Shown here: piece after piece, positions 1 through 18,947 of the stretch | Numbering within the stretch: position 1 is the stretch's first letter | How the letters are laid out: the number at the start of each line of letters is the position of its first letter | NCBI GenBank assembly: GCA_001662655.1 | Contig: KV460251.1 | Strand: one strand, 5' to 3' | DNA length: 20,000 nucleotides | DNA from: Pseudogymnoascus verrucosus | Taxonomy: Eukaryota | Program-made: the position numbers and the translations under genes | Notes under the pieces: model-generated | What the model was told of the DNA's origin: nothing | What the model saw: only the letters and a program-made list of their open reading frames with translations | Database searches by the model: none

Positions 1-1847
1 AGCGTGTAGGCAATTATTTACCGTCGTCTCTGAGATAGAAAACGAGATAGGAGAATCGAAATGTCGCTCCCGGTGGCACTGCTTCCTAACAGTACTAAAA
101 GCAAAAAAGATTACAGACCTTGTTAATAGGCTAGAGAGAGCAAAATCAATTCTTGCACTTGCACAGCTCATGTATCTCCAGTAAGGCGCTTACTTCTCTT
201 GACAATTATTGTAAGCTAACAACAACAAATAGATCCTTTGAGATTGAGAGGCTAAACCAGAAAACAAAGATCTCATCGATTTCTACCGCAGAAAATCCTG
301 AACCCCGCATGTCAACCACGCCTATACGCCAAAATGAAAATGGCCATATCAGTGCCCCTTATAACCAGACAACTTTTCAACTAGGGATTGGCGTACTTGT
401 GGTGCGCCAGGTGCCAAATGGCAGTGGAAAAACTCGCACTTCTCTAGAAGAAACCATAATTCAGTTTCGATTTGCAGACTGGTTCCTACGATGGGCAATT
501 AGTATCGCGATTTGCCCAGAAATCGAGAACGTAAAAATAACGATAAGAACCTACCACCTCGTTCCTAGTAGCTCAGCCATATTTCAGGCCTGTGCCTTGG
601 GCGACGACCAGACAGTGGCCCGGCTCATCCGAGAAGGTAGAGCTTCTGCATTTGATATGACTAGCAACGGGGTAACTCCTCTGCATGTAAGAAAGTCCAA
701 ACTCGCTATCCGCTATGAGTCCAGTCCTCTTGTGCTCAATTATGGTTATTGTCCAACCTATCTGACGTGTCGGTTTAGGTGGCCGCCGCTTGGCACCATC
801 CTAGTACGTGCAAGCAGCTTTTGGAACATGGCGCAAATAGTTCGTTGTTGATGCAATATAGTACAATCTCGTGGTTAGTGACTTATCAACTCAGTCAACA
901 AACAAATATCCTACTAACAGTATTTTCCAAGGAACGCCCTAGGCTTGGCCTCCGAATACGCCGGTTACTACCGTTGTTTCTTGTTTCCAGGACTGGAGGA
1001 ACATCGCCCTGGGCCCAAAGAAGACCTTAGTCAAAAGCGCGAGACGATGCGTATACTGACTGATCACAATAGTTGCGAAGTGCATCAAGGTTATAGGCCA
1101 GGCCATACCGGCTATTGGAATGGGTCTACGTCCGCTCTGCACATGTTTCGAGGCACTTCTGACGACTTCTTGTGGTTATACAAGCGTGAAAATGTGTTAA
1201 TGGACGTTAAAGACTCAGAGGATTATATTGCGTCCATTGTCATTCAACAGACTCAGATGTTTCCAAATGCCTCTTTTCCAGCAGCTTTCAGCCTAGTGTC
1301 GAGTATGGAACATTTGGCAAAGTACAGAGACTCTTCTGGATCAACCCTATTGCACCATCTTCTTAACACAAGTTCTGACATAAAACCTGGTTTTTGGATG
1401 AATGGAATCGATACTTTTGATATAGCAAGGACACTACTTGAACATGGTGCAGACCCAACATCTCGCAATGACCAAGGCTACACTCCATTAATGGGTGCCG
1501 CAAGGGATAGCCTACTCTACTTACATAGTAAGGCTTTATTCTGGACGGCTGAATCAGCTGCTAAGATGTACTCTGGATATTTAACTCGTTGGATAAAGAC
1601 GCTAGAGTCTTGCCTTGTTGACGCCCGTGAGTACCGCTCTCGAGAAATTGAATTAGGCGCAGAGAGCTTTGTGCTATGCCGGCAGTTTCAGCACTCCAAC
1701 GACGGACTTAGCGGGACAGGACAATGGTCCGTAAGACTTGTGTTTGGGCTGGATGATATTCACCATGGCCTTCAAATTAAATTCCAGTTCCAATCTGAAG
1801 AGAAGAACGAGAGAATGCCTGGATCTTGGCCCAAAGAAATAATATAA
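1..1847 (+). CDS. 5'-partial fungal protein with HeLo-like N-terminal domain and ankyrin repeats; exons <1-180, 233-686, 779-873, 932-1847
   Basis: Frame 2 from base 2 reads ...KAKKITDLVNRLERAKSILALAQLMYL, resembling a fungal HeLo-like/SesA N-terminal helix. GT-AG introns 181-232, 687-778 and 874-931 join the ORFs in frame. Ankyrin motifs: GVTPLH|VAAAWHHPSTCKQLLEHGA, GSTLLH, LLEHGADPTSRNDQGYTPLMGAA. Confidence 0.75.
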
Positions 1848-1890
1848 CATTAATCGCCAAACATTGACGCGCTCTTGGCGGCGCAGAGCT

Positions 1891-1930
1891 TGGGAATGGG
1901 GATGGGATGGGGATGGGATGGGGAAGGGGG
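1891..1930. repeat. Imperfect (GGGAT)n simple repeat
   Basis: tgggaatggggatgggatggggatgggatggggaaggggg, just 3' of the ankyrin gene stop. Confidence 0.7.
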
Positions 1931-2698
1931 GTTCTCATGATTCTCTAACTGCTGACTGTATGTGATGGGATGGATTGATGCGGTATGGTAACATGCGATG
2001 GCATTGGATGGGATGGATTTCTATAATAGCGAATAGATGCCTGTCTGTAGTAATGTCGCTAGCCTGGAATTATTGCGCCCTCCCATTCTTGCAAATATCA
2101 AGAGAGAGGCTTGTGTCGTACTCATAGCAAAAGAAGTCATAGGCAAAGCAATAAAAAACATTCAACAGTGTACATTCGCTTATAGTCAATATGGTCAGAT
2201 TCTGTACTAATTACAGCTTGTAATAGAGATGTCTTAAACACTGAAGTAAATTCACCGAAGGACAATCTGGTCTCTTATGCCTTAAGACAGACCTAAAAGT
2301 GATGCGAACTTATACATGAACTAGATCCCTACGTTTTGAGTCGATATGCACTGTTAGTATACAACTGCTTTGATCTCCCTATAAATTCACGCTTAAATAA
2401 GGCAGATGAATAGGTTATGGGAGTTGCGAAATCTTATTAAACGAGATGACTTCTGAGGAGGATGACACAGCTCTAGGGTTCTGCAACTTGTAGCCTGTCT
2501 TCAGAGATGTAACGATAAAACTACTCTACTCTATATACTAGGTTCGCTTAACGACTGTGCATCAGACATATGATCTGCGTCCTCAATCCCAACAAGTGGC
2601 GTCACATATGATGTTAGCTACTACTAGTATAAAACCAACTGCAGAGTCTTTCACCTCTCAAATAACCGCACCTTTTATGTATCTGACAAGTTTCTGAT

Positions 2699-3667
2699 TT
2701 ATACATGATGTGAACAAGCACCTCCTTCTTCAGTTTTGCTAGCCTCATTCATCGGAGAAGGGTTGTCCTCGTCCTTGGGCCTCGGCTCGAGATTCGAGCC
2801 GTCTTTTTGCGCTTCACCTCCACAAGGTTCTTGCTCCGGAAACACTAAAATGCTCTCGTGGAGAGAAGTGTGGATCTGCGCAGATAGTCTTTCCAGATAT
2901 GGATGGCGAAGGACCTCACCAATAGAGCATATCTTGGCCTTTTCCGTCTTGTAGCCCTCGAGCATCGGCGATACTGGTCCCTTCGGCTCAGGCGGGCATC
3001 CGCAAGATCCTAGATCTGCAGCACACTCGCGCCGGTGAGTGTGCTCCCATTCACCCCATTGGGTCATAAAGTCGCTGTCCGCTTCTTTGAACGTGTCGTA
3101 TGCGTCAATATACTCCGCAATCTTAGCAAGGTCGATGCATCCACTATGCTCGAACCATTTCCGCAGCATCAGGCCCCATGTCCAAGGCCAGCCGTCACGC
3201 CACCTATAACCGTTCATATCAAGCTTAAATCGAGACGGAGCTAGCGATGATAACGTAATCATCTTCTCTAGGCAGGATATGTGGAAATACTGGTCTTCGT
3301 CACTCACAAGGACAGCTCTGTAAACATCCATGATGCGACGACCCTTGTCACTTGGCGACATAGCCGCGATAGGGCACGATACTGCCCGGCATTCTGCGCG
3401 TACCATATGTCCTGGCGGAGACCGCTGAAGGAGAATGGCGATTGCGGGTTCGCACTCGAGCCGGCGTTGTAGCTCTTGTCCATTTTCTCGCATCCTTTCC
3501 TCCGGGGTTAGACGGGATTGTCTCTCTTCTTCAGCATCGATCTCCTCCTGCATCCGCACCAAGTCCATTCGCGAAAGGAGCTGTGTATATCTCTCGATTC
3601 TTGCGATCCTTGCTGAAGACGGGGATCTCCGACGGCTCCGTCGAGACAGATGAGGTGTCCTGTCCAT
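2699..3667 (-). CDS. Intronless 322-aa hypothetical protein with a PARP-type zinc-finger-like motif
   Basis: Long ATG-initiated ORF. RAECRAVSC...RI...YR......YFHISCLE (C-x4-C...H-x2-C) resembles zf-PARP spacing; second cluster HRRECAADLGSCGC; basic N-terminus RRSRRR. Confidence 0.7.
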   Translation of the reverse strand: MDRTPHLSRRSRRRSPSSARIARIERYTQLLSRMDLVRMQEEIDAEEERQSRLTPEERMRENGQELQRRLECEPAIAILLQRSPPGHMVRAECRAVSCPIAAMSPSDKGRRIMDVYRAVLVSDEDQYFHISCLEKMITLSSLAPSRFKLDMNGYRWRDGWPWTWGLMLRKWFEHSGCIDLAKIAEYIDAYDTFKEADSDFMTQWGEWEHTHRRECAADLGSCGCPPEPKGPVSPMLEGYKTEKAKICSIGEVLRHPYLERLSAQIHTSLHESILVFPEQEPCGGEAQKDGSNLEPRPKDEDNPSPMNEASKTEEGGACSHHV

Positions 3668-4010
3668 TGCCTTTGCGAGGAAGAAGGGACGAGTTGGTAG
3701 TAAGTATATTGATTTAACGGCAGAGGAGTCCGCTTTCGTACTACACTCGAACCTCCTTAAGACGATACCCCTTATGCCTATATCCTCGATAGTGCGATTT
3801 TTTTGGCGGAACCAAATCTTGACTGGTGGTGTAAATAGTATTCAATAGCACGATATCCTCATAAGACGACACTAAATAATGGCACGGAATACATCGTCTT
3901 AAAGAGGTTCGACTGTATGTAGTCTACGGGCTGGCTTCGGCCTGAAGAGATCATCCGGCTTGGCAACTTGCCCTGTGATTCGCACGCGACAGCTTCGTGT
4001 AACATACATG

Positions 4011-4160
4011 ATGCGGCCTTTCGCGAGCCCCGAGGCAGATTTCCAGAATTCACCAACTGTTTTGCGTTTCCGTGAAGCCGTTGTCTTCATCGAAGACACA
4101 GGATGCAGCCTTTCGAAAGGCCCTAGGCAGATTTCAGAATCCACCAATCGTTTCGCTTTT
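4011..4160 (+). repeat. Cluster 1 of a dispersed ~90-bp repeat module (42-bp core at 4065-4106)
   Basis: Core cgtttccgtgaagccgttgtcttcatcgaagacacaggatgc, flanked by two AGGCAGATTT..GAAT.CACCAA blocks. Similar to the reverse complement of 16583-16790 and to 18672-18891. Confidence 0.8.
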
Positions 4161-5035
4161 TGTTATGGGGTTCTTAAGTGAGCAAGCAGCGTGGAAGTTG
4201 CAGCAACTTGCGGGTTGAATCACCAGAGACCAGCCAGCTCATGCTCTGTAAGCGCTTATAAACCCATCATTCCCGAGCCTAAGGGGGCTTGGCCACCGCA
4301 GGGAACGGGAAGCACGAGACGTTGTTGCAGGTAGAGGCTTCTCACCAGAGGATGGAAAACAAGAAGCCGTGTTGTGCATAATTCTAAAAACAGTCCTTTG
4401 TGCCAACGAGAAACTAGGCTCTGCAATCAGCGAATAAGAAACCCGACTCTGAAGCTAGGCATCAACTTTTGGCTACTACTGTAGCTCCGGAAAACTCACA
4501 AAAAGCAGCACTGGTACTTGTTTCCCGTTATCCCGTTTCCGTCAACAATCTTTGATGGTCTAACGGTCATTTGGACCATCCACAATCTTGGTGCATCCGG
4601 GTTCGTGTTTCCTGGATGCTGTTTGTAGTTTTCGTGATTTCGATTACTGAAATCGGAGGATTGTTTTCCCGTTCACCGCGATTCGTGCCTGAGAAACGAC
4701 ATCGAGATTCCCGCTGTCAGTTTCCAGGAAACCAGAGACTATTTTCTGGTTCTTGACTTTATACATTTTATACCGGTCCCCGTTTCCCGTTTTCCTAGAT
4801 CCACGAAACGGTTTCCTCAGCCTAGAATGTAAGTCCAACAGTCAGTTTTTCCACTTTTAGATGTATCCTTGGCTGGTGTGTAGTGGCCTTGCTGTGCCCA
4901 TCTGCGGCTAAGTATATGAACTCTCTTTCTGTCTCTTTTCTCTCCTGTTCCCATTATATTTTACCACGTCTATCGTTTTGTTCCTCAATCAAGACGTTTG
5001 CCCTTTTAATTCCTGTTTTATCTGATCATTTCACA

Positions 5036-7123
5036 ATGATACCTGGTGATGTAGAATGGCTTTCTCTCCAATTTGCCAACTTGGCATCCTTGCCAGCGCC
5101 AGTACAACGGCCTATGAAAGCGAAAAAAAAGGTTACAACTGCTACTGAGCGGCTTTATGATATCGAGGAAAAGTCTTGGGAACAGTGAGTTAGCCCATGT
5201 CTATCACAGACTACAAAATTAAAAGATACCAAGGTTCAGATCAAATCTCGAGAAACCCGGGGACCCAGAAATCCGCCCTGAGCTGTCGGTGCTTCAGCTC
5301 TACTTCAAATGGTTTGCTATAACGCATAAAGGAAAACTAGGTCCTAGACCAAGCATAAGCACCTTGGTATGGAGGGTTGGCAGATTCTCATACATGTATG
5401 CGGATCGCCATGGCATAGACATTCCCGACGACGTGAAGGATGGCGTTGTTCAAGTGAGTTACTTAGGTTTACGAGAAAGAAGACTGGACGCTAACTGATA
5501 ATATCTAGTACATTCAAAATGATTTAGCGGCTGAACTGCACCTGACGTCTAAAACATATGACAAGAATTTTGCAACGGATGAAGACGTTTCCGAGATGCT
5601 GAAATACCTCTGGACTGAAGATACACATTGCTATCTCAATGAACGCATGCGAGTGCAAGGGGCTTTTTTTAAAGCCTTCTTGAGAGCTACAGCATCAAGA
5701 CCTGGCGCTTTTACACGCTCTGAGTGCTACCGTGATAGTAACATTGCCTTGTGCTACAAAGTAAGCATCTACACCAATCAAAGAGCTTAAGTTAACCATC
5801 AATAGGATGTAGAGGTGTGGGCCATTCGAAAGAAGCAGGGTGGTGTACGTTACAGGCTCGATGTGACATTTCATAATATGAAAGGTGCACGGCTAGATCC
5901 CTCAAAATTGCAAGTAACAACTCCCATTAATGCGGATTATACTAACCTTAGAGAAGTCTGACACTAACCATCGAGGAAAAATACTTGGAAGATCTAGGGT
6001 CATCAGTTGTGTTTCTGTTCTTAGTACTTGGGTGGATGGATCGAGCATTCGAGAATATCACGAGCTTGCACCAACTATTCCATCTCGAAGGCTTCATCCC
6101 GGATGGCGCGAGCGCCATCCGCCTTCCAGTTGCAGCTGCAGCTCGTACTCAGCCCATTCTCCGCAGGATGGAGAAGCGCGGAAGTAAGCGCATATCAAAG
6201 ACTCTGGCTTGGTCATCAGGGTCAGCACTGCAACAACTAAAGAGAGTCTGCGAAGCGGGTGGCTGGCCCCAGAGGATGACCGCATATAATGTGCGTCGAG
6301 GGGGATTAAACAAACTAGACGGTAAGTCACACAACATAGTCTCATTATACGTCTAGAAAGTAACAAATAAACAGGGGATCCAAATACATCATCTGCACAG
6401 AGAAATCAAATTGCGGGCCAAGGCAATTCCGCGGTCTTTACTAGGGCGTATCTGTCACGTCACTCGGCTGTGAAGATTTTTAAAGGTCGAGCAACGCATG
6501 TCAAAAATGAAGACGACGATGATGATGATGACGACGTACGAGGTATGCGACTCTTGAGAGACCGGAGCGCACCTCAAACTTTACCAGACCACCTCTGGGA
6601 ACAGATCATGCAGGCAGACAGAGATTTGAAAACCATCGATGAGAATCGACAACTCGTTCGACAACTCCTTCGCCGAGAATTAGCTTTGCTAGGTGCTGAT
6701 CGTTCCTCAACCAACGTAACAGCTCTTGAAAGGGAGCTTTATAACTCCAGCAGAAAGTTCCATCAGCGAAAACAGAACCTGAAAAGGCAAGAGTACCTCA
6801 AGTTTAGGGCTGAATGGTTTAAATCGCGAGCCTCGAAAATTCTCGCGTCCTCGAACGAATCGCAGTTACAGAAACCGATTACGGCCACTGAATTCTCCCC
6901 AGCTAGGAAGGCTGTCATAGAGGCGTTGTACCCAGCGGATCCTAGCAAACTCTCAATGTTCTCTGCCGCAAAGGCACTCATCTTCTTTGTCGAAACCTCG
7001 GATGGAGTACGTGCTAGTATTGCTAGTGAAAGGAAGAGGCGGCTTGATCCTGCCATTTTACCAGGCAAGAAGAGGAGGCAGGGAGACTCGATTACCTTTA
7101 TCGCCTGCTCGCCGACGATTTAG
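5036..7123 (+). CDS. DUF3435 tyrosine recombinase (Starship captain-like), ~615 aa; exons 5036-5184, 5234-5453, 5509-5760, 5806-~5913, ~5952-6321, 6375-7123
   Basis: Five short introns restore one frame (intron 4 boundaries ambiguous: GT 5914/AG 5951 or GC 5910/AG 5953). DUF3435-type motifs: YLWTEDTH..NERMRVQ, TASRPGAF (catalytic Arg), LCYK|DVEV, MKG, TAYNVRRG, QRNQIAGQGNSAVFTRAYLS (catalytic Tyr, codon 6449-6451). Confidence 0.85.
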
Positions 7124-7470
7124 GTCGTAGAATCTAATTTAAATGGCGACAGTCATTTGCTGTCACATATTTGCTATACGGGATAGGGATTTCTTTCGGG
7201 GCACAATTGGCAGTTGTTAAGCAGGGCAGCTATTTATTTCCGTACCACGTATCCTAATGTCATCCTATTTAACGCAGCAACTCAGCATGACTTATAAGCC
7301 CCAACCTTGGTCACAACTTAGGTATCCCAGAATGATGCAGTGATATTTGCTCAATTCGACGATACCGACCCATACTGTTATGCGCTCTTTTGAAGCTGTG
7401 GATCCGTCATTTACAGGCTAAATCAGAGTAGAGATATGTAGGCCATGGGATATCAGGATATAGTCATATA

Positions 7471-7954
7471 ACGTCCGTCCCTAAGTGGCGAAAAAACCGC
7501 TGTGCCGAAAAAAATAAGAGGTACTTTGACTTTGGACATCTCAAATTCTACACACTTATCAATATCTGTTACATTACTGCATGAATCGTATTCTATAGCT
7601 ACTCCTGAGCACCCCAGACGGCTCCTTTAAGAAAATTATGTTTGCGCTGCCACTGTCGCGCCTGATTTGCAGATGGTCTGCATTTGTTGCGAAACATACT
7701 TCCCCCACCATAGCTCCACCACTAAGCTCTTATTATTCCCAAAACGTATAAGAGGGTTGTACCCGAGCTCTTAAACCCTCACAGCCAAGCGGGAGATCGT
7801 CATCAGCCATGTGGTGGTAGTGCGGGGCAAATTCATGTATGGTTGCCATGGAAATTAATACCTCAAGCCAAAGCGACTAGTGGTTTTTCGGTTAGTGTAT
7901 ATTGACCCCCACGTCTGAGATGTGAACTCGCTTATGTCATCATCTGGCAAGGCT
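7471..7954 (+). repeat. Left terminal inverted repeat (484 bp)
   Basis: Ungapped reverse-complement match to 14929-15412; 7698-7940 is identical to 14943-15185. Confidence 0.95.
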
Positions 7955-8118
7955 CTTATCAGCCACACCGCGTGTGGCTGATGAGGGTTGTGGTTGGCGA
8001 GGCTGAACTGTAGGTCTTCTTCTGGAACTTTCCATGAGCGACCAACTGCTTTCGCTCTGGGCTGAGCTGCCACTGAACTGTTCCTGTCACTATCTTCATA
8101 TTCACCAGTAAGTAAGCC

Positions 8119-9834
8119 ATGAGCGACCGCGCCAGTAAAGCTCTTACTGAGGGCTTTTTGCCGGGAGAGACATACGATGCTTTTTCAAAGCGTAAAGATG
8201 TCCCTCTCACTACCGTCTACCACCGTGACCATGGGCGACCCTCGAAAGAAGAGAAGGCCGAAGGCCAACTATACCTCACTCCGTCAGAAGAGAAAGCCCT
8301 TGAAAAGTATCTGAAACTAACATCTGATCTCGGAAATCATGTGCGAATAAAGTTTATACCCTCACTAGCATTTAGTATCGCCCGCCAACGTTCTACGACA
8401 GATAAGGCGATCAAGCCTCCAGGCAAGAACTGGCCTCAAGGCTTTATAAAGCGTCATCCAGCACTCAAATCAAGGAGACTGAGGGCGATGGACTGGAAAC
8501 GTCATGACAATAACATCTATAATAAGGTTATAAACTGGTTTGAGGTGATTGAGAATGTAGTAAAAGATCCGACCATTCTGTCGGAAAATGTGTATAATAT
8601 GGACGAGACGGGAGTTATGTTATGCATGCTTGGCTCTGTCAAAGTCCTTGTAAGTAAGGACGATCCGCGGGGCTACAGAGGCGCAGGCGTCAAGCGAACG
8701 ATGGTGACTGCCATTGAGTGTATAAGTGCAAACGGTAGGTCTTTGTTACCATTGATTATTTGGCCAGCGACTACCCATCGAAGCAACTGGACCACGTTCC
8801 CTACCCCTGGATGGCACTACGCATGGTCCGAATCTGGATACACCGACTCCAAGATTAGCTTGGAGTGGCTCACGTGTGTGTTCGATCCCCAAACCAAAGA
8901 ACAGGCGAACGGGAAACCACGGGTGCTCATCTGCGACGGCTTTGGGACCCACGAAACCCTCGAAGTGTTGGAGTTTTGTTTCGAAAACAACATAATTTTA
9001 TGTCGTCTCCCGTCTCATACCTCTCACAAGCTCCAGCCCTGTGACGTCGGAGTCTTTGCCCCCTTAAAGGCAGCATATCGCGACGAAGCTGAACGACTAT
9101 ATCGGGTTACAAATGCAATCGGCAAGGAGCATTTCACATCTCTCTACAGCCCTGCAAGGGATAAGGCGTTCACGAAGAGAAATATCACTGCTGCATGGGC
9201 TGCAAGTGGTTTGTTTCCATTCAACCCAGACAGAGTGCTCAAAACTATACTGAAGCCCCCCTCTCAACTAACCATTCCACATGCTGATGGGGTGGGTTCT
9301 TGTCTTCAAGACGAAGTGCTAAACTCGCCTGTGACTCCAGTGTCAGCAGAGGCTCTTACGTCGCTGCATAATCTTATCAAACAGGACCAGTCTAGTACAC
9401 AGCGCCAACAAAGGCATGTACAGAAGCTTGCTAACGCCGCCCAAATGTCCTTCGCCGAAGTTGCTCTCCTCCGAGATGAAAAGCAATCCTTGATCACAAT
9501 AGCCAACGAATCCAAAGTTCGCCGTTCGACCAAGTCAACAGTAGTAGGGAAGGCGAAGGTGATGAGCTATGAGGATATCGTGAAGGCACGAGCAGACCGT
9601 GCTGCGAAAGACATTATAAAAGGCAAGGGAAAACGCAGTCGGAAGCGTAAGGCGCTAGAGGCATGTGAGCAAGAGCTAGAGCCAGAAGTGGCGTATGCTG
9701 TGAAAGAGGTAAAAAACGGCAAGGGAATACGTAGTCGGAAGCGTAAGAGTGCTGTACCAGAAGCAGATGAGCCAGAGCCAGAGCCAGAGCCAGAACTGGC
9801 GCGGATGACGGCACCAGTGGCGCGGATGATATAG
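8119..9834 (+). CDS. Fot1/pogo-family DDD transposase (HTH CENP-B-like + DDE_1), 571 aa, intact
   Basis: N-terminal HTH region (VPLTTVYHR..GRPS, YLTPSEEKAL, PGKNWPQGFIKRHP). Triad YNMDETG / LICDGFGTH / LQPCDVGVF with 35 residues between the 2nd and 3rd Asp. Basic C-terminal NLS-like motifs; no stops or frameshifts. Confidence 0.95.
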   Translation: MSDRASKALTEGFLPGETYDAFSKRKDVPLTTVYHRDHGRPSKEEKAEGQLYLTPSEEKALEKYLKLTSDLGNHVRIKFIPSLAFSIARQRSTTDKAIKPPGKNWPQGFIKRHPALKSRRLRAMDWKRHDNNIYNKVINWFEVIENVVKDPTILSENVYNMDETGVMLCMLGSVKVLVSKDDPRGYRGAGVKRTMVTAIECISANGRSLLPLIIWPATTHRSNWTTFPTPGWHYAWSESGYTDSKISLEWLTCVFDPQTKEQANGKPRVLICDGFGTHETLEVLEFCFENNIILCRLPSHTSHKLQPCDVGVFAPLKAAYRDEAERLYRVTNAIGKEHFTSLYSPARDKAFTKRNITAAWAASGLFPFNPDRVLKTILKPPSQLTIPHADGVGSCLQDEVLNSPVTPVSAEALTSLHNLIKQDQSSTQRQQRHVQKLANAAQMSFAEVALLRDEKQSLITIANESKVRRSTKSTVVGKAKVMSYEDIVKARADRAAKDIIKGKGKRSRKRKALEACEQELEPEVAYAVKEVKNGKGIRSRKRKSAVPEADEPEPEPEPELARMTAPVARMI

Positions 9835-10772
9835 GCGCAGGTTATGCAGGGCAGATTGTTCCGGCGGGCTTATAGATCATTATTGTATTGTTGGTCGAAT
9901 GAGGCAGGCCTCGCGAATAGTTACTATGCTACAGTTAGTCTGTCATATTCTCTGTGCAATGGAATGGAGATAGCAATGAATCACCTCTTGCCAGTTATCA
10001 ATGAGTGGTCTTTCGCGCTCATCACGGCAGTCCCGCCTTCAAATGCCAGATGGTATCGAGGGATATTTGTAGTATTGTGTCCGGCGTTCTGCACGTCGTG
10101 TCTCTGCGCGTCAGGTGCTCGAAGCCGTACATAAGTCGGCAATGACATCGACGATGTTGGCGGTGTCGAGTGCCTCCGTCGTAAGCATCGCTTGGTCAGA
10201 CGTGTTGAGAATAGACTCCGCCGTGGATAGTGGAACAGGAAGGGCAGTGGTTTTGGGAAGCCGTGCACATTTTGTTTCGAAGTGCGAAGTTGTTTTCACC
10301 AGTCATCCTCTAGTGAGGATCAGTGATGACAGAATACAATTGTTCAGAAAGATTCAGAAAGTAGCACAGTTCACTGACATGTCTTCGATGGTCGTGAGAC
10401 TGTCGTAAATTGTGAATTTCGGTCAGTGCCTCTTGGTTGGGACCAGATCACGTGTGAGATTGCCAAAGACGTTAATTTCAAGCCACACGCCAGCGAGCCA
10501 AGAAGGCAACCTGGAGCCGGAAAAACTTGAAAACTGATGCCACGAATCGACGGCCCCACGAATGGTCTTAGTGGAACCCTGATTACGCTACGGGCCGTCG
10601 CACTCCCTTGAAGCGCCGGAGCATTTTAGCGTCGCACGTCACCTGATGAGGCATTTACTCAAGACTCATCAACCTCAGCCCGCCAGCGCGACAATCAATT
10701 TAGCTGACGGTCTCGTCTTTACGCTTCACTTCTATCTAAAGAGCAACGACAATCTCATACATCGATCGAACC

Positions 10773-13700
10773 ATGCAGCAAGTAATGTCTACCAAGCATG
10801 CCAGAGAGCCTAATCCAGTCGATACAACAGGACTATGTCTACTGTCTCTAGATGGCGGCGGCGTGCGAGGACTTTCAACGCTCTACATATTAAAAAGCAT
10901 TATGGATCGGCTAAATCACGAACGAAAGAAGACTGCTAATCTTCCGCCGGTGAAGCCATGCGAACTATTTGACCTTATTGGAGGTACAAGTACTGGCGGG
11001 TGAGGAGACCTATTTTATAGTAAGCCTCTACTAATGTAATCATAAGATTGATTGCGATTATGCTTGGCCGGCTCGAGATGGACGTGGATGAGTGTATTAC
11101 CGCATATAGTAATCTCGCGGCAGCCATTTTCAGTGAGAAAATAAGTCAGGTCCCAGTTAACATAAAGGGTAAAATAAAGCCGCGGTTCGACTCGGCCAAA
11201 CTGGAAAGTGCGATCCGAAAGGCGGTAGCACAGAGTGGTGTATCCGAGACAGACTTGTTCAATGATGGGACTGAGCGTGGATGTAGAACGTGAGTGCTCT
11301 ACCAAAACAAGAAGATGCAGTTCTAACGATATCAGCTTTGTGTGTACTGCCGACCGCGACACGAAGGACATTGTCCGTCTCCGAAGCTATAGCCTTATTG
11401 ACGAGCCGAATATTCATGCGACGATATGCCAGGCTGCTCTTGCAACATCCGCTGCTACAACATTCTTTGATCCCGTCAGCATTGGGGATCGTGCGTTCGC
11501 TGATGGCGGCCTTGGTGCAAATAATCCAGTGGACGAAGTTGAGGGAGAGGCGTCAAACATCTGGTGTTCGGAAACTGGAGATTTGAAGCCTCTAGTCAAG
11601 TGTTTTATATCAATTGGGACGGGGAACCCCGGCAAGACGGCATTCGAAGATGGCATATTTAAGTTTCTCGGCCAGACTGTGGTGGATATCGCGACCGAGA
11701 CGGAGAATACAGAGAAGAAATTTATAGCCAGGTGGGCGAAGCATTTTGACGAAAGCCGATACTTTCGTTTTAATGTTGATCAGGGTCTGCAGACCATTGG
11801 GCTTGACGAGTACAAGAAGAAGGGCGCGATAGAATCAGCGACAGGAGGGTATCTAACTCACACAGCACAGAAGTTTCAGGTGCGAGATTGTATCCAGAAC
11901 ATGAAGCTAAAGCAGAGTGTGTATAATGAGGACTATTCGTAGCAATTCTAATGAACCATTAGGCTGATAGTCTACAGTTAAAACTGATCCTTCGTTTGCC
12001 GCCTTGATAAGTGTGAGCTAGATGATACTATATTGGCCTATCTTTACTAAAGTTGAGTAGAAATACACCATTCGACAACACTCAGGTATGGCGTGGTAAA
12101 CTTTGAATTATTATTCATGAGGAAATACCTGCTAACTCATTACTTTAGGGAGTGGCGCTACAATCTTTGGAAATGTACATTGGATAGTGCCCCGTCCTGT
12201 CAATGATCTATTCACAGGGCGTATCGAGCTACTGGATCGGATGAAGAAGGCCTTGTCCACTATCAATACTCCTCCTACTGACAAACGGAAGATATTCGTT
12301 ATTACAGGGCTAGGAGGACAAGGAAAGAGCGAAATCTGTCTGCAAGTTGCGAACCTGATGCGGAAGGAGTATGTTCTAATCTTGCCTCTGGTGTTGCTGT
12401 CCTAGCTTACAAGAGCAGATTCTGGGGGATATTCTGGGTCAACGTTGACATGCTTTCCACTGCTACAGATGGCTTTATCACTATTGCAGAAACTCTTGGA
12501 TCCGCGGTCAAAGATGTTCCTAGTGCTCTTCGAGCTCTTGCAAAAGCTGAGCGAAACTGGCTCCTTATTCTCGACAACGCTGACACCCCAGATTTTGACT
12601 ATCAGGTCTACCTTCCATCTGGGACTCACGGTGCTATTATTATAACATCTCGAAATTCTGAATGTAGTCAGTATAATACAGTAGGGGCTGAGGTTATAAA
12701 GGCTCTTAAAGACCAAGATTCTCAAGAGCTTTTATTTAAAGCAGCTAACCTTCCTCAAGATTCATGGTCGTTATACGCTAGTCAAGCTACAGAAATTCTC
12801 CACCTACTAGGATCACATACTCTCGCGCTAATCCAGGCTGGCGCGTATATTGCAAGAGGCCACTGCAAACTACACGAATACCCAAATGAATATCGACGGC
12901 AGCGAAAGCGACTGCTAGAGTTCCGGCCAAAACAAGCACGGTCGACGTATGGCGATGTTTATGCGACCTTCGAGGCATCGGCATATGTGTTAAAGCAGTC
13001 CAAGAGCGAGGCTGCAAGTGACGCTCTGCAATTACTCGGAATTCTTTCAATGCTCGACTCTAGCATCCTCCCTCTCCAACTCTTTCAAAATACATGGGAG
13101 GGATGTAGAAAAGTTCTCCACACTAATCGTATAGAGGAATGTGGTATAGATGTGACTACAAGTCACGTTTTACAATTACCTGCCTTTGTAATGGCAGATG
13201 ATGACGAATGGGATTCTTACCGCCTCACTAAGGCCAGAGATTTATTAGCATCACTTTCTCTGGTTACCCAGCACAATTTAGATGGCTCGCCCGGATTATC
13301 AATGCACCCTTTAATACATGCTTGGGCCAAGGACCGTCAGGACTTAGAGAAGCAAGGCATAACTTGGATATCTACTGGGTGTGTGCTTGCGCTTTCCCGA
13401 TTCAATACTCAATGGCGGACACAAGAGAGGCGACTACTACCACATGTCCAGACTTTTGTGGACATCAGGAATAATAGGGAAGTCTCACTTGGGTCTGAAC
13501 CTATAGTTGTTCCAATTCTTCTTGAATGTGGCTGGATCCTGCTAGACATGCGGCAGGACTCTAAACTTGACGGCCTATTAAAAGATATATTTGTTCAACT
13601 TGGAAAAAAGCCCGATGAACTATCAAAAGAGTTTCTGCCATTATATAACATCCAAGCAAGGAGCTTGGTAAATCTAGGACATTATAAGAAGGCAGTCAAG

Positions 13701-14621
13701 CTGTTAGAGCAGATGGTTGAGGTCGAAGAGGCTACTCTGGCTAAGGATGACCCAGACCGGCTGGCATCGCAGCACGTACTTGCAGAAGCTTATCAGGCAA
13801 ACGGACAGGTGAAAGAGGCAGTCAAGCTACTACAGCAGGTGGTCAAGATCAGAAAGGCTACTCTAGCCGAGAATCATCTAGACCGGCTAGCGTCGCAGCG
13901 CGCACTTGCAATTGCTTATCAGGCCAATGGACAAGTGAAAGAGGCAGTCAAGCTACTACAACAGGTGGTTGACATTGGAGAGGCTACTCTAGCTAAGGAT
14001 GACCCAGACCGACTAGCGTCACAGCACACACTTGCAATTGCTTATCAGGCAAACGGACAGGTAAAAGAGGCAATCAAGCTACTAAAGCAGGTGGTTAAGA
14101 TCGAAGAGGCTACTCTAGCTGAGGATCACCCAGACCGCCTAGCGTCACAGCACGCACTTGCAGGTGCTTATCAGGCGAACGGACAGGTGAAAGAGGCAGC
14201 CAAGCTGCTACAGCAGGTGGTTGAGATTGGAGAGGCTACTCTAGCTAAGGATCACCCAAACCAGCTTGCTTCGCAGCAAGCACTTGCAGTTGCCTATCAA
14301 TCAAACGGACAGGTGAAAGAGGCAGTCAAGCTACTACAGCAGGTGGTTGAGATTGGAGAGGCTACTCTAGCTAAGGATCACCCAAACCAGCTTGATTCGC
14401 AGCAAGCACTTGCGATTGCCTATCAATCGAACGGACAGGTGAAAGAGGCAGTCAAGCTACTACAGCAGGTGGTTAAAATCAGAAAGGCTACTCTGGCTAA
14501 GGATCACCCAAGCCGGCTGAAATCGCAGCACGCACTTGCAATTGCATCACGCCAACGGACAGGTGAAAGAGGGAGCCGAGCTAGAGCACGTGGTCGAGAC
14601 CAGAGAGGCTACTCTAGCTAA
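10773..14621 (+). CDS. Patatin-like phospholipase - NB-ARC - TPR NLR (PLP-1-like architecture), ~1177 aa; exons 10773-10999, 11047-11289, 11336-11916, 11978-12012, 12061-12085, 12149-12368, 12419-14621
   Basis: Patatin motifs DGGGVRG, GTSTG (Ser) and DGG (Asp); Walker A GLGGQGKS; Walker B WLLILDNAD; IIITSRN; SMHPLIHAWA; 42-aa TPR-type repeats. Six GT-AG introns give 3534 nt in one frame. Confidence 0.9.
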
Positions 14622-14648
14622 GGATCACCCAGACCAGCGTCGCAGCAC
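13686..14648 (+). repeat. Tandem array of 126-bp (42-aa) TPR-coding units: 7 near-complete plus 1 degenerate
   Basis: Unit starts at 13686, 13812, 13938, 14064, 14190, 14316, 14442 and 14566. Consensus KEAVKLLQQVVxIxxATLAKDHPDRLASQHALAxAYQANGQV. Confidence 0.95.
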
Positions 14649-14928
14649 TGAGGATCAGACGTTGACTGTTGCGATTCACTGGTTGCTGGAGGTGTCAAAG
14701 GAAATGGAATCTGCCTATCTGGCGGTGTCCCATCAGCAGATGGAGGGACAGTAGGCTTCAAAGCTGAGAATCTCTTCACATCATTCATTGCTCGGTTAGT
14801 GATGAGTTGCGGCGTTGTGTTGCGTTATTGATCCGGGAGCCCGCCAGCTTCGGATTATTGGAGGTCTCTACGGTAACCTTGATCTCTTTTGTGAAGCGAT
14901 TTATCACGTGGGTAAAACAGAGCCACGC

Positions 14929-15412
14929 AGCCTTGCCACATAATGACATAAGCGAGTTCACATCTCAGACGTGGGGGTCAATATACACTAACCGAAAAAC
15001 CACTAGTCGCTTTGGCTTGAGGTATTAATTTCCATGGCAACCATACATGAATTTGCCCCGCACTACCACCACATGGCTGATGACGATCTCCCGCTTGGCT
15101 GTGAGGGTTTAAGAGCTCGGGTACAACCCTCTTATACGTTTTGGGAATAATAAGAGCTTAGTGGTGGAGCTATGGTGGGGGAAGTCTGTTTCGTAACAAA
15201 TGCAAACCCTCTGCAAATCAGTCGCAATAGTGGCAACGCAAACATAATTTTCTTAAAGGAGTGGTCTAGGGTGCTTACGAGTAGCTGTAGAATACGTTTC
15301 ATGCAAAAATGTAAGAGATATCAATAAATGTGTAGAATTTGAGATGCCTAAAGTCAAAGTACCTACCTTTTTTTTCGGCACGGTGGGGTTTTCGCCACTC
15401 AGGGACGGACGT
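14929..15412 (-). repeat. Right terminal inverted repeat (484 bp)
   Basis: Reverse complement of 7471-7954, followed by TA. Confidence 0.95.
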
Positions 15413-15811
15413 TATTTATGCCTAGAACACCTCTTGGGATACTGTTTAAATTGGAGTGTTTCTTTCGATGTCTGTAACCGCTGTCCCGCGATTTGGCTCT
15501 CTCCACTCCGCCACGTACAGAGGTAGTGGTTCGCGTTGGTAGGTACTTACGCCTGGAACTACCCCAACTGGCTCACCGAGAACCCCCTGCAGTACGTACG
15601 TACTCTAAACAATTGAACAATATAAACCACCCATTCCTTCCTATTGCCATCGCTCAGTTCGCGGTCTTCCATCCACAATATCATCCACCTGTCACCACAA
15701 CCATTCCCTCCTATGCTCACCAAAACTAAACCCCCAAGCACAAATACCGCCCGCTAGTTTCACCTCCCGCCTGCCGGCGCATTTGTGCGCAGCAGCGCCT
15801 TTTCGCTCGGA

Positions 15812-16071
15812 ATGTCGACAAACGCCGCTAACGCTCTTCTCGCGGAATCAAGAGCACTCTCAAAGTACGTTGCCGGAGAGAACTAGCCTTAAGACATTAT
15901 ATAGATTGCTTGTGAATAGCACTAACTATAAGCAGTGGTATTAATCCATCGATGCCGCTCGACTTTGGGCCCCCTAATGCCGGTTTACCATTTCCTGATT
16001 TCTCCTTTCTGAAGTCTGGGAAAAGCAGCGACACTTTAGCGCTCGGTTGCCTAGAATTGATTTGGATCTAG
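15812..16071 (+). CDS. Possible small spliced gene or gene relic (~62 aa); exons 15812-15864, 15936-16071
   Basis: ATG, donor GTACGT at 15865, branch ACTAAC and CAG acceptor at 15935 give MSTNAANALLAESRALSNGINPSMPLDFGPP...; no recognisable domain. Confidence 0.25.
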
Positions 16072-16436
16072 ACATGGGGACGCGTGATTCAAGCCTAATA
16101 ATTGGTTCGGAGAGTCCAGCTCCTTGCCCCAATGTTGAAGGTGCATCGGCCAATGTCTGCGCTTTACTCTGCGTCTAAAGGCATCTACCCCTGTATATTG
16201 TGGATGCAGTACGGAGCCTCCGTACCTCTAGACAATCAACCTCTGAACAGCCGATTTACCGTTTCCGTGATTTAGTGTGGTGTTTTTAGATAAAAGCGGC
16301 ATTGGCCTTAGAACCACTCTCACGATACAGCAACTGGTTATCAAGTTTCCATAAACAGGAACTTCAAAGTCGTCTCATTCAGCGACCATCTCTGGCAGAG
16401 ATGCCTAATTCTCTGTGAGCTGCCATCGCTTTTGCT

Positions 16437-16790
16437 GCCAAGACCACCACCAAAACCGTCCCCTGTTGTCAGCCTTCCGCTTCCGTGTTCCCGCTCTTAG
16501 GCCATTGCTGCTTTTACTTTCACTGCCACTGGGCACGTCCATCTCCACCTTCGACGACCGCCGAAGCGGCCTAAGAACGCTTAAAAACGCGAAAATGTTG
16601 GTCGATTTCTGAATCTGCCTGGGGCCTCACAAAAGGCCGCATCCTGTGTCTTTGATTACGACGACGGCTTCATGGAAACGGGGAATGGTTGGTCGATTTC
16701 CGAAATCTGCCTCGAGCCTGTGTATTCGATCACGACAGCGGCTTCCTGGAAACGCGAAACGGTTGGTCGATTGTGATGTCTGCCTCGGGC
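16437..16790 (-). repeat. Cluster 2 of the dispersed repeat module (cores 16639-16680, 16717-16754) plus a 58-bp block 16437-16494
   Basis: Inverted relative to clusters 1 and 3. The 58-bp block matches the reverse complement of 18890-18947 at 53/58. Confidence 0.8.
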
Positions 16791-17376
16791 CTCTCGACTG
16801 TTGTATGGGTGGTGCTACGCTCAACGAACCAGAAAGGGGCGACGTCCAGCAGTAGCAGTCTAATCGGAAGCATCAAAGGTATTGTATTATCTACTGATCT
16901 ATCTGTAACTATTCGCCGAGTTCCCCTGAGAGAACTCAGACTCTAGGCGCTAGACTGAATGAATATATACTCATCTTATAATGTCTCACATATTTCCGAG
17001 CATGTGACCTGTACCCAACTGACACCCGCGGATCGTCAGATGACGGCCAAGGATCAAAAGTTGATTAGAGAAATCGGGTTCAGAGGCAATTCGAGGAGGA
17101 GGGATTTCCTAAGATCGCGGATCAATGGTCGGATTGATGGTTGACTTATCAGAGCAATGAGGACTAATATCTATTTTGTTCTAAACTGTTTCTAGCAGGT
17201 AGATATAGTCTCATCACATCACGTTAGAGGTCTGCGTCGTCCGACTCCCAATGGGCCCGATCATCAGGCCACTTATCATGCCATATACTTCAAGCCCTTT
17301 CTAGTCGTTCTGTAGCAATGTGTTTATAGTATGGTGGCATACCCTCGAATACACTTATTGCGTTACAAGCTTCGAC

Positions 17377-18516
17377 CTACTGACCCTCTGAAATGAGATT
17401 AGTGCAGATCTCTTCAAGTACACGGAATAAGTCGTTGGCATCTGCGGTATGGCGACATGTCGAGGGATCGCATATGCACTGCACCCCGCTATGAAAATCG
17501 GCATGGCGGCTAGGGCGGCCTTCGTCCTCGAGGAGCATCAACTCTGCTACTACTTTGTAGCCCCTGACCCATAGAGATTCCTGGACGTGAAGATGGAGTA
17601 TAGCCTTAAGCACTTCAGCTAGGTTGTTAGTGTGCTTCTTCTTCCTTTCATGATGGTTCCATTCGAGATGCCTCTTCCCTCACGACGCCGCTGTATTTCA
17701 TGGTAGCTTTTTAACGCCCCTAATACGTACCCCACGTTGTACTCCTGGCCTTCTAACACGCCTTGTCGTATTATTTCTCGCTGTCTTGAAGCAAATTGAT
17801 CTAGGATCCATAGTTCCATCCTTATGCCAGTGATAACAACTTTATCAGAGCCATCTTCTAAGCATTCGAGTGCCATAATCGCACCCGCCCAGGCCGCCCA
17901 TGATATTTCCAGAACAACGTGGTCGTATATAGTGTGTAGAGACAAAAGCAATGTGTCATAGTCTTGAGCACCTAATCTGTGGCGAAGGTGTTCCATGAAG
18001 AACCAAGTTTTCTGTACTGAACCTTCTACATATAAGGTGCCTTTCCAAGTAGCTTCAAGAAGCATTAGAGCCACTTTTGGATCTCCTTTTATATGTTCGG
18101 TGATAGCGTCAGCTCCATCGTGATATGTAAGCTCTCCCCTTCTAAATTCTTTAGCGTAGGCAGAGTGGAAAAACACCTTCTTTCTCCTATTAAAGACAGC
18201 CCTAAACACCTTAGATACTTGAGAAAGATTCAAAAGCGTTTTTCGGTCTGAAATTTCGAAAAAAAAAAAAAAAAAAAAACTTATGTCTTTAATTCAGTAG
18301 GTAATAGGGACAAATTGTCAGGGCCACTAATATGTGGCGGCAGGCATTGCTTCTTTAGTAGTAATTTCCCATCCCGGATAGGGCTCTCTATGCACTATTA
18401 GCGCAGGCTGGTATGTAAATAATAATACTATTACCTCCTAGCCTCTTACGTCTCGCCACTACCTTGAGACCAGCCCGATCGTCAGCTTCAGTATCTGATA
18501 CTAAGGTATCTGACAT
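17377..18516 (-). pseudogene. F-box domain gene, disrupted by an in-frame TAA and a poly(T)21 frameshift; introns 18434-18388 and 17683-17619
   Basis: Minus strand reads ...DNLSLLPTELKT*V(polyT)FEISDRKTLLNLSQVSKVFR, an F-box-like pattern (L..LP.E.......L..L..VSK.FR). Stop at 18283-18281; A21 at 18259-18279 shifts the frame. A 65-bp intron joins the 204-aa and 78-aa ORFs in frame. Confidence 0.7.
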
Positions 18517-18671
18517 GTTGTTTGTCGCACTTAGTCCTTCCTTTTGAGGTTTTTGTAATGTAGATTGTTGTATAAGCGCAGTAAAGCCGATGAAGTTGTT
18601 AAGAGTGCGCGGGTCTTTTATACTTCGTTTGCCCTTGAGATTACATGACCTCTAGGCCACAGGGCAGAGCC

Positions 18672-18947
18672 CATTTCTATGAAGCCGCTATCTAGATTAA
18701 AGACACAGAATGCGGTTTTTTGAGAGGCCTAAGGCAGATATCAGAATCATGCACCCCGTTTCCATGAAGCTGCTGTCGTCATCGCGGACACAGGATTCAG
18801 GGTACTTGACCTCTAGAGGTCAAAGCACCGAAGCCAGCCGACCGTCTCCCGTTTCCACGAAGCCGCTGTCATGATCGAAGACACAGGATGCAGGAACAGG
18901 GAAGCAGAAGGCTGACAACGGAGGACGGTTTTGGTGGTGGTCTTGGC
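18672..18947 (+). repeat. Cluster 3 of the dispersed repeat module (cores 18672-18713, 18757-18798, 18850-18891) plus a 58-bp block 18890-18947
   Basis: Three 42-bp cores spaced 85 and 93 bp apart. Confidence 0.8.

Follow-up and report, generated by a model that had tools for sequence, protein, structure and literature searches.

A long-ended Fot/pogo transposon of Pseudogymnoascus verrucosus with an intron-containing NLR gene as probable cargo

Fungal repertoires of nucleotide-binding oligomerization domain (NOD)-like receptors (NLRs) turn over very fast, and how these genes move is an open question. Starships are the only NLR carriers named in PMC13449251, and another report gives NLR and patatin-like genes as frequent Starship cargo (PMC9156397). 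For the pogo superfamily, a survey (Gao et al. 2020, PMC7386202) gives total lengths of 1.2–5.2 kilobases (kb), ends of 40–60 nucleotides (nt) in most Fot elements and of about 100 nt in FotC, with very long ones (392–856 nt) confined to unclassified insect elements, and a TA duplication only in FotC and FotD. The present analysis concerns 20,000 nt of Pseudogymnoascus verrucosus DNA (assembly GCA_001662655.1, contig KV460251.1), a stretch referred to below in its entirety as the window, in which positions 7471–15412 hold a Fot/pogo transposase gene and an NLR gene between long terminal inverted repeats (TIRs). The best explanation, which we consider probable, is that this interval is one autonomous Fot/pogo DNA transposon with long ends and a variable stretch that contains the whole NLR gene with its introns. 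A preliminary description, made from the sequence alone, had taken Fot1/pogo elements to be usually short with short TIRs.

In its machinery, the element resembles the fungal Fot/pogo transposons Fot1, Pot2, Flipper, Aft1 and Tan1, with a DDE_1 domain of the DD35D type, an HTH_Tnp_Tc5 domain, a TA duplication and TIRs. Unlike the Fot/pogo elements of the survey, it measures 7942 nt, has ends of ~485 nt and holds a 3.8-kb host-type gene; the departure is one of content, not of machinery. With Starships, it shares the character of a fungal mobile element with NLR/patatin cargo. However, Starships have a tyrosine recombinase at one end and extend over tens to hundreds of kb, whereas the window unit has a DDE transposase, a TA duplication, a length of 8 kb and one cargo gene. 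A Starship has its DUF3435 captain within its own bounds, at the 5′ end, and the DUF3435-like gene of the window lies outside the ends; nor does the window hold the two copies with their own ends that make a composite transposon. Another fungal relation is ToxhAT, according to two reports (PMC6737239, PMC12506042) a 14-kb hAT-type transposon carrying ToxA, which is likewise a cut-and-paste type element with inverted ends and a host-relevant gene. It differs in its superfamily (hAT), in its effector cargo and in being one element instead of a lineage with varied cargo. In bacteria, ISEcp1 picks up downstream genes, and the elements treated here appear analogous to ISEcp1-type and composite bacterial elements in having cargo downstream of the transposase, a shared left end followed by divergence, and spare left ends (in the metagenome loci L031 and L062, see below); unlike ISEcp1, they have a eukaryotic host and a putative capture route. 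Full-text literature searches, with subscription journals and Repbase outside their coverage, found no pogo, Fot or other DDE transposon with NLR cargo, in line with the preliminary statement that no pogo family is known to mobilize NLRs.

Read directly in the sequence, the element proper occupies 7471–15412 and runs from ACGT to ACGT, both ends having the terminal sequence ACGT(CCGTCCCT...). The ACGT termini flanked by TA had been recognized in the preliminary description, and an element with inverted ends is indeed present; only the interval of 7469–15414 assigned to it has to be narrowed, since it takes in both TAs. The left TA duplicate (7469–7470) and the right one (15413–15414) are read directly and agree with an empty-site joint, described below, that keeps a single TA, its two letters fitting either side. 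The target duplication is TA, a TAA direct repeat being excluded by the right side, which reads TTA. The left TIR (7471–7954, forward strand, starting ACGTCCGTCCCTAAGTGGCG) and the right TIR (14929–15412, reverse strand) were delimited by repeat analysis and arm alignment, and for the right one also by direct reading. Flanking letters included, the arms (7468–7954 and 14929–15415) form an inverted repeat of 487 nt that is 93% complementary, so that the 484-bp TIRs first described are borne out (arm length 484–487 nt); this is the longest repeat of the window and, for a stretch of 20 kb, lies far outside what chance would give. Neither a terminus-like motif, with up to 6 mismatches allowed in 22, nor an inverted repeat matching either arm was found inside the element, which accords with the earlier remark that no internal right TIR follows the transposase. 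Divergence is unevenly distributed along the arms. The outer ~230 nt differ by 32 mismatches (20 transitions and 12 transversions) and are 85–88% alike, while the inner 243 nt (7698–7940) are 100% identical between the arms, the identity stepping up abruptly near 7698. This mosaic might, as a guess, reflect recent conversion between the arms. An identical inner arm as a trait of the family was considered and ruled out, as the arms of two metagenome units with long ends (L018+L054 and L010) have no such step. Those two units also make the long TIRs a trait of a sub-lineage and not a peculiarity of the window copy.

The transposase gene (8119–9834, forward strand) consists of 571 codons and a stop, in an open reading frame (ORF) of 8116–9834 with its ATG at 8119 and no internal stop. 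Pfam finds DDE_1 at 9.9e-33 over positions 1–177 of the 177 of the profile, and HTH_Tnp_Tc5 at 1.2e-4, a marginal match (22.4 bits for a cut-off of 22.2); the same HTH_Tnp_Tc5 domain is carried by the transposase's relatives in precomputed annotation. From the D of LICDGFGTH to the D of LQPCDVGVF, 35 residues are counted in the translation, which gives DD35D, and the description of an intact DD35D transposase is confirmed. The best relatives (568–570 amino acids) are 90–91% identical, the named top matches being from Pseudogymnoascus strains. This is the single transposase gene of the element. It is followed by a non-coding 3′ region (9835–10349, forward strand), in which blocks within 10094–10349 recur 3′ of the transposases of relatives (L003, L004, L021 and L033); no coding signal was detected in these conserved blocks. 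At the other side, the right sub-terminal family sequence (14647–14928, forward strand) marks where the cargo stops on the right: record 27 among the contigs of the related sequencing run X5 (see below) matches 14647–14917, and 14833–14861 is covered by four X5 contigs and one contig of run X11.

The cargo is confined to about 10350–14646 and contains an NLR gene at 10774–14621 on the forward strand, delimited by Pfam, translations, tblastn and its identity to the protein P0121. The gene is 100% identical to this 1177-residue protein, which is named VE01_08085 of P. verrucosus and is located on a 267-kb contig. When P0121 is compared with the window by tblastn, it falls into separate pieces over 10773–14618, read as seven exons and six introns (exons 10774–11000, 11048–11290, 11338–~11917, 11977–12012, 12060–12085, 12149–12369 and 12417–14621). 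An intron-containing NLR gene of 3.8 kb thus lies between the arms as first reported, and the retained introns support the earlier suggestion of a capture at the DNA level. Patatin (6.2e-9) and TPR_12 (4e-69) are matched by Pfam, and the precomputed domains of P0121 include PF01734, PF00931 and TPR families, which puts patatin, NB-ARC and TPR in one protein. The translation shows the patatin motifs GGGVRG, GTSTG and DGG as well as a P-loop (GLGGQGKSE) and a Walker B-like LLILDNAD. The TPR array (13551–14638, forward strand), recognized by repeat analysis, reading frames and tblastn, is made of 126-nt (42-residue) units that are 78–98% alike. Its eighth and last unit is spaced at 121 nt, a 5-nt loss that shifts the frame, and TPR likeness ends at ~14640. 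The gene brought with it at most about 0.4 kb of 5′ flank, and its 3′ end is cut within this last unit, at the cargo boundary. The designation of the gene as a complete patatin-NB-ARC-TPR NLR therefore holds for the three domains, the introns and the length of ~3.8 kb, but ‘complete’ is slightly too strong for a gene whose last TPR unit is cut and frameshifted. The receptor would still be functional. The same combination of a patatin-like phospholipase with NB-ARC and TPR is known from Neurospora PLP-1 and Podospora PaPLP1, and NLRs of the PLP-1 type cause cell death upon recognizing a non-self SEC-9 allele. The window NLR resembles PLP-1 in this domain architecture and has the patatin Ser/Asp dyad (GTSTG and DGG) and a Walker A motif; it differs from PLP-1 in the frameshifted last TPR unit and in sitting inside a transposon.

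Whether the 7.9 kb came in as a block was read from public sequencing runs, whose Logan contigs were aligned to the window over its full length with a threshold of 80% likeness. X1, which contains 95% of the sampled window words, is probably the source of the assembly, and hence not independent of it; X2, X5 and X11 are related isolates, for which missing cover was read as absence only where the neighbouring transposase is multi-copy. The empty site predicted in the preliminary description (GTCATA-TA-TTTATG) exists in both X1 and X2: a joint leads from 7468 to 15413, skips 7944 nt with 2 letters shared and leaves a single TA, in one contig of X1 (depth 221.6) and in two contigs of X2 (depth 61.5). 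The X1 depth is ~207–216 over 1–6003, rises to ~396–404 over 6004–7337 and reaches 662 over 15342–16008. The depth of the flanks, at about two to three times the single-copy value, taken together with the joint, indicates that they belong to a repeat of which one copy is uninterrupted; the left flank (6004–7468), by depth and joint, is present about twice in X1, one of its copies being the empty site. The whole 7.9 kb is one insertion at a TA. No relative shows the NLR at the syntenic place without TIRs, an arrangement that had been named as incompatible with a mobile unit, and the site is empty in X2.

Copy numbers differ along the element. In X1, a depth of 203 in the bins of 10673–13340, for a single-copy value of 207, makes the NLR single-copy, the transposase has a depth of ~285 (~1.4 times single-copy) and the arm bins have depths of 939 and 467 (~3–5 times), equivalent to about 3–6 further arm copies. 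These depths point to one transposase gene, that of the NLR-bearing unit, and several further copies of the ends. Three X1 contigs match from 7469 inward with flanks unlike those of the window, eight X5 contigs stop at 15414 with unlike sequence beyond, and the left terminal motif occurs, flanked by TA, in 13 metagenome loci. X5 and X11 have the transposase and the arms in many copies (depth 110–660 vs ~27–37 for single-copy pieces), the depth drops to 26 and 67 at 10006–10672 and to 0 at 11340–12006, and cover resumes at ~14647; the NLR is absent from both runs at a likeness of at least 80%. This pattern of cover means that the usual element of the sister isolates is without the NLR. X2 has an NB-ARC-TPR relative, ~85–91% alike over 12106–13775, on a 17-kb contig that otherwise has no match to the window, an arrangement that would fit a resident source gene. 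In Pseudogymnoascus sp. VKM F-4281, an NLR (P0123) is 82% identical and a transposase (P0002) 90% identical, on contigs of 5319 and 5961 nt, respectively; a search for short transposase pieces on a 5319-nt contig, made to check their linkage, found none.

Relatives of the element were collected by scanning metagenome contigs for the transposase, which gave 169 relatives, of which the best 80 loci were kept. With up to 4 mismatches allowed in 20, the terminal motif was found in 14 of the 80, in 13 of them flanked by TA; a looser search for ends covered 30 of the 80 loci. The ORFs of the 34 loci longer than 5.2 kb were scanned with Pfam: 38 ORFs of at least 110 amino acids from L010, L021, L031 and L062, 188 of 257 ORFs of at least 150 amino acids from the other long loci (ORFs overlapping longer ones were dropped by eye), and 64 of the 88 shorter ORFs located in chosen gaps. 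Five metagenome units are delimited at both ends, and four of the five, or five of six when the window is counted, hold an NLR inside. Two have long arms flanked by TA and a NACHT-WD40 gene on the same strand as the transposase, namely L010 (about 8.0 kb, arms of about 445 nt, 73% alike) and L018+L054 (about 7.1 kb, arms of about 530 nt, 87% alike); the latter was joined from two records that are 100% identical over an overlap of 1623 nt, a third record, L047, being 99.6% like L054. The others have short arms: L031 (8.1 kb, arms of 43 nt) holds a HET-NACHT-WD40 gene and L062 (5.9 kb, arms of 41 nt) a DUF7708-NACHT-WD40 gene, both on the strand opposite to the transposase, and L021 (7.8 kb, arms of 42 nt) has 5.3 kb inside without a Pfam match. 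No match was obtained in the Pfam scan of the long inner stretches of L021, L004 and L006. The preliminary description had advised a search for TIR pairs with the same transposase and different cargo; related transposases in soil metagenomes do have NLRs of other classes between their ends, and sister lineages carry them in the same position. More broadly, 14 of the 34 long loci (L008, L010, L014, L017, L031, L033, L038, L043, L053, L054, L055, L062, L068 and L078) have ORFs with NACHT, NB-ARC (or its companion DUF7779), HET or HeLo no more than a few kb away from the transposase; the chance expectation for NLR/HET neighbours, from fungal gene counts, would be a few per cent.

Close pairs of loci (L033/L034, L038/L046, L010/L049 and L018/L068) have the left terminus and the transposase in common and then diverge without a right end, L033 and L034 being 95.4% alike over 3430 nt; this divergence suggests that the stretch downstream of the transposase is variable. 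In a transposase tree of 49 rows, from which 31 loci with fewer than 380 aligned residues (L062 and L054 among them) were left out, NLR-bearing units occur in at least two clades, and where comparable the NOD modules of these units are only 39–46% alike. The spread over two clades together with the divergence of the modules argues for repeated capture and not for one ancient passenger.

Two loci were kept out of the count of end-bounded units with NLR cargo. L008 has a patatin-NB-ARC-TPR gene 39% identical to that of the window, located upstream of the transposase on the other strand and with no left end, and is counted as adjacent only. L014 is ambiguous, since its 410-nt inverted repeat reaches the contig end and overlaps an NLR ORF, and the long repeat may be a larger inverted duplication; within it, at 1507–2376, a HeLo and SesB ORF lies directly 5′ of the transposase on the same strand. 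Other features were seen in passing. In L010, 75 nt just past the right terminus (8240–8314) are 98.7% identical to the interior of its own left arm (334–408), reflecting either an insertion into the arm of another copy or an assembly effect. Genes for heavy-metal P-type ATPases of the PCA1 type occur within a few kb of the transposases in L024, L049 and L074, with a cation-efflux gene in addition in L049 and a chromate-transporter gene in L074. In L078 (3189–4160), an OTT_1508-like deaminase ORF and an ORF with a HET domain are situated downstream of the transposase.

A mechanism can be proposed for the movement of the unit and for the origin of its cargo. The transposase would bind both ends, excise the 7.9-kb unit and insert it at a TA, the NLR being carried along, and the unit would have transposed in this way after gaining the NLR. 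Most likely, the receptor gene would have been acquired as DNA from a resident gene, with its introns kept, and the likeliest way of capture would be that the element lost or skipped its own right end and a more distant one served instead. Such a route is consistent with the spare left ends of L031 and L062 and with the divergence within the close pairs. Of the earlier claim of an autonomous 8-kb unit that moves an immune or incompatibility gene, the single insertion and the possession of its own transposase and ends stand, whereas the movement with the NLR aboard is what we infer. Several observations weigh against this account. The empty site shows that 7.9 kb were inserted but does not tell whether the NLR already belonged to the inserted unit, and the contigs with the joint are short on one side (41 nt in X1, 79 nt in X2) and marked ‘between: not known’. 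Full-length copies at other TA sites, for which the preliminary description had advised a search, were not found, as no second insertion of the window's transposase–NLR unit was detected and the unit is single-copy in X1. The last TPR repeat is frameshifted, leaving the annotated protein with a 24-residue out-of-frame tail. Among the metagenome relatives, L031 and L062 each have a second left end inside the unit and are thus composites, while L008, L017, L043 and L053 have the NLR/HET gene upstream of the transposase with no left end found, and part of the NLR/HET association may be neighbourhood and not cargo.

Among the alternatives, the one that best withstands these data, although unlikely, is an acquisition in place: a cargo-free pogo element would have inserted at the TA, break repair, ectopic recombination or another mobile element would have added the NLR afterwards, and the 7.9-kb unit would never have moved. 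That the unit is single-copy in X1 and that the empty site gives no date for the entry of the NLR agree with this history, and the contrast between inner arms of 100% identity and outer arms of 85–88% is evidence of recent recombination or conversion within the window copy. However, the NLR segment is bordered neither by ends nor by inverted or other repeats, the event would have to recur if all arose in place, as four related units have an NLR in the same position, and its product would still be a unit movable by its transposase. A neighbourhood effect is a distinctly improbable account of the association; here, transposons would settle in accessory regions rich in NLR and HET genes (for example Starship-like ones), and the link would be mere co-location. 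The DUF3435-like gene just upstream (5036–7123) speaks for such a setting, as do the NLR and patatin genes reported as Starship cargo in PMC9156397, the NLR/HET genes that five loci (L008, L014, L017, L043 and L053) have on the opposite side of the transposase and the metal-resistance genes near it in three (L024, L049 and L074). Against co-location, identified ends flanked by TA enclose the NLR in the window, L010, L018+L054, L031 and L062, and the window unit is missing as a block from the empty site.

Two separate insertions, that is elements or solo ends on either side of a resident NLR, can hardly be maintained. A 2-nt TA duplication by itself cannot link two ends, since every pogo end carries a TA and one on each side is no proof of a single insertion, and X1 does contain about 3–6 further arm copies and three contigs with unlike flanks at 7469; yet the flanks are contiguous with one TA in X1 and X2, which would be impossible if the NLR were resident there. 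Independent insertion of the two repeats had been named as fatal to the idea of a mobile unit, and it is not what is found: the element has a single transposase, and no internal end was detected. An assembly artefact joining the transposon to an unrelated NLR has next to no probability. Repeats such as the arms and the TPR array are prone to break assemblies, but contig record 3 of X1 (which may underlie the window assembly) bridges 9805–13821, with the transposase–NLR junction, without any difference, and the depth is unbroken along the unit.

Outside the transposon, the window contains a DUF3435-like gene with introns (5036–7123), which lies beyond the element ends, 345 nt short of the insertion. 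P0241 (502 amino acids) is its best relative, and only 20 relatives were found at E ≤ 0.001 among 1.84 billion representative proteins, which makes the gene a rare branch of the tyrosine-recombinase-like family. A continuation of the protein across the insertion was considered and ruled out, since the gene ends at 7123, at the same point as P0241. On the other side, a second element of ~2.5 kb (16437–18947) has 58-nt inverted ends that are 91% alike and, at each end, arrays of sub-terminal repeats of ~40–57 nt; one of its ends recurs at 4001–4161, and the X1 depth of ~2100 at 16009–16675 marks it as highly repeated. It holds an ORF at 17619–18293 (reverse strand) without a Pfam match. Two joints (7469 to 16437 and 7505 to 18557), in one contig in each of X1 and X2, place the initial 37 nt of the pogo terminus (7469–7505) between sequences resembling the ends of the 16437–18947 element, in what looks like a solo terminal remnant within another repeat, common to X1 and X2. 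Near the start of the window, an ORF at 918–1847 has weak ankyrin-repeat matches, all under the Pfam cut-offs, and the ORFs beside it, at 135–851 and at 2699–3841 (reverse strand), belong to no family.

The window unit widens the structural range of the fungal Fot/pogo elements in length and in end length. We tentatively regard it as a member of a Fot/pogo lineage of leotiomycete soil fungi whose variable stretch would repeatedly take up NLR, HET and HeLo death genes, a view that is about evenly balanced with a slight lean to doubt and that would make DDE transposons receptor vehicles alongside Starships. The recurrence of NLR/HET genes would have either of two reasons: the elements settle among such genes and take downstream DNA, or units that carry them persist better. 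A small DDE transposon with an empty site, one transposase, one NLR and sister elements makes the question of how fungal receptor genes move directly testable, and it extends to a classical eukaryotic cut-and-paste transposon the bacterial pattern of immune genes that ride on mobile elements. If the lineage is as proposed, DDE transposons, and not only the giant Starships, would be carriers in the fast turnover, the copy-number change and possibly the horizontal spread of immune and allorecognition receptors, and the receptor may in turn favour the persistence of the transposon, by analogy with defence genes on bacterial mobile elements.

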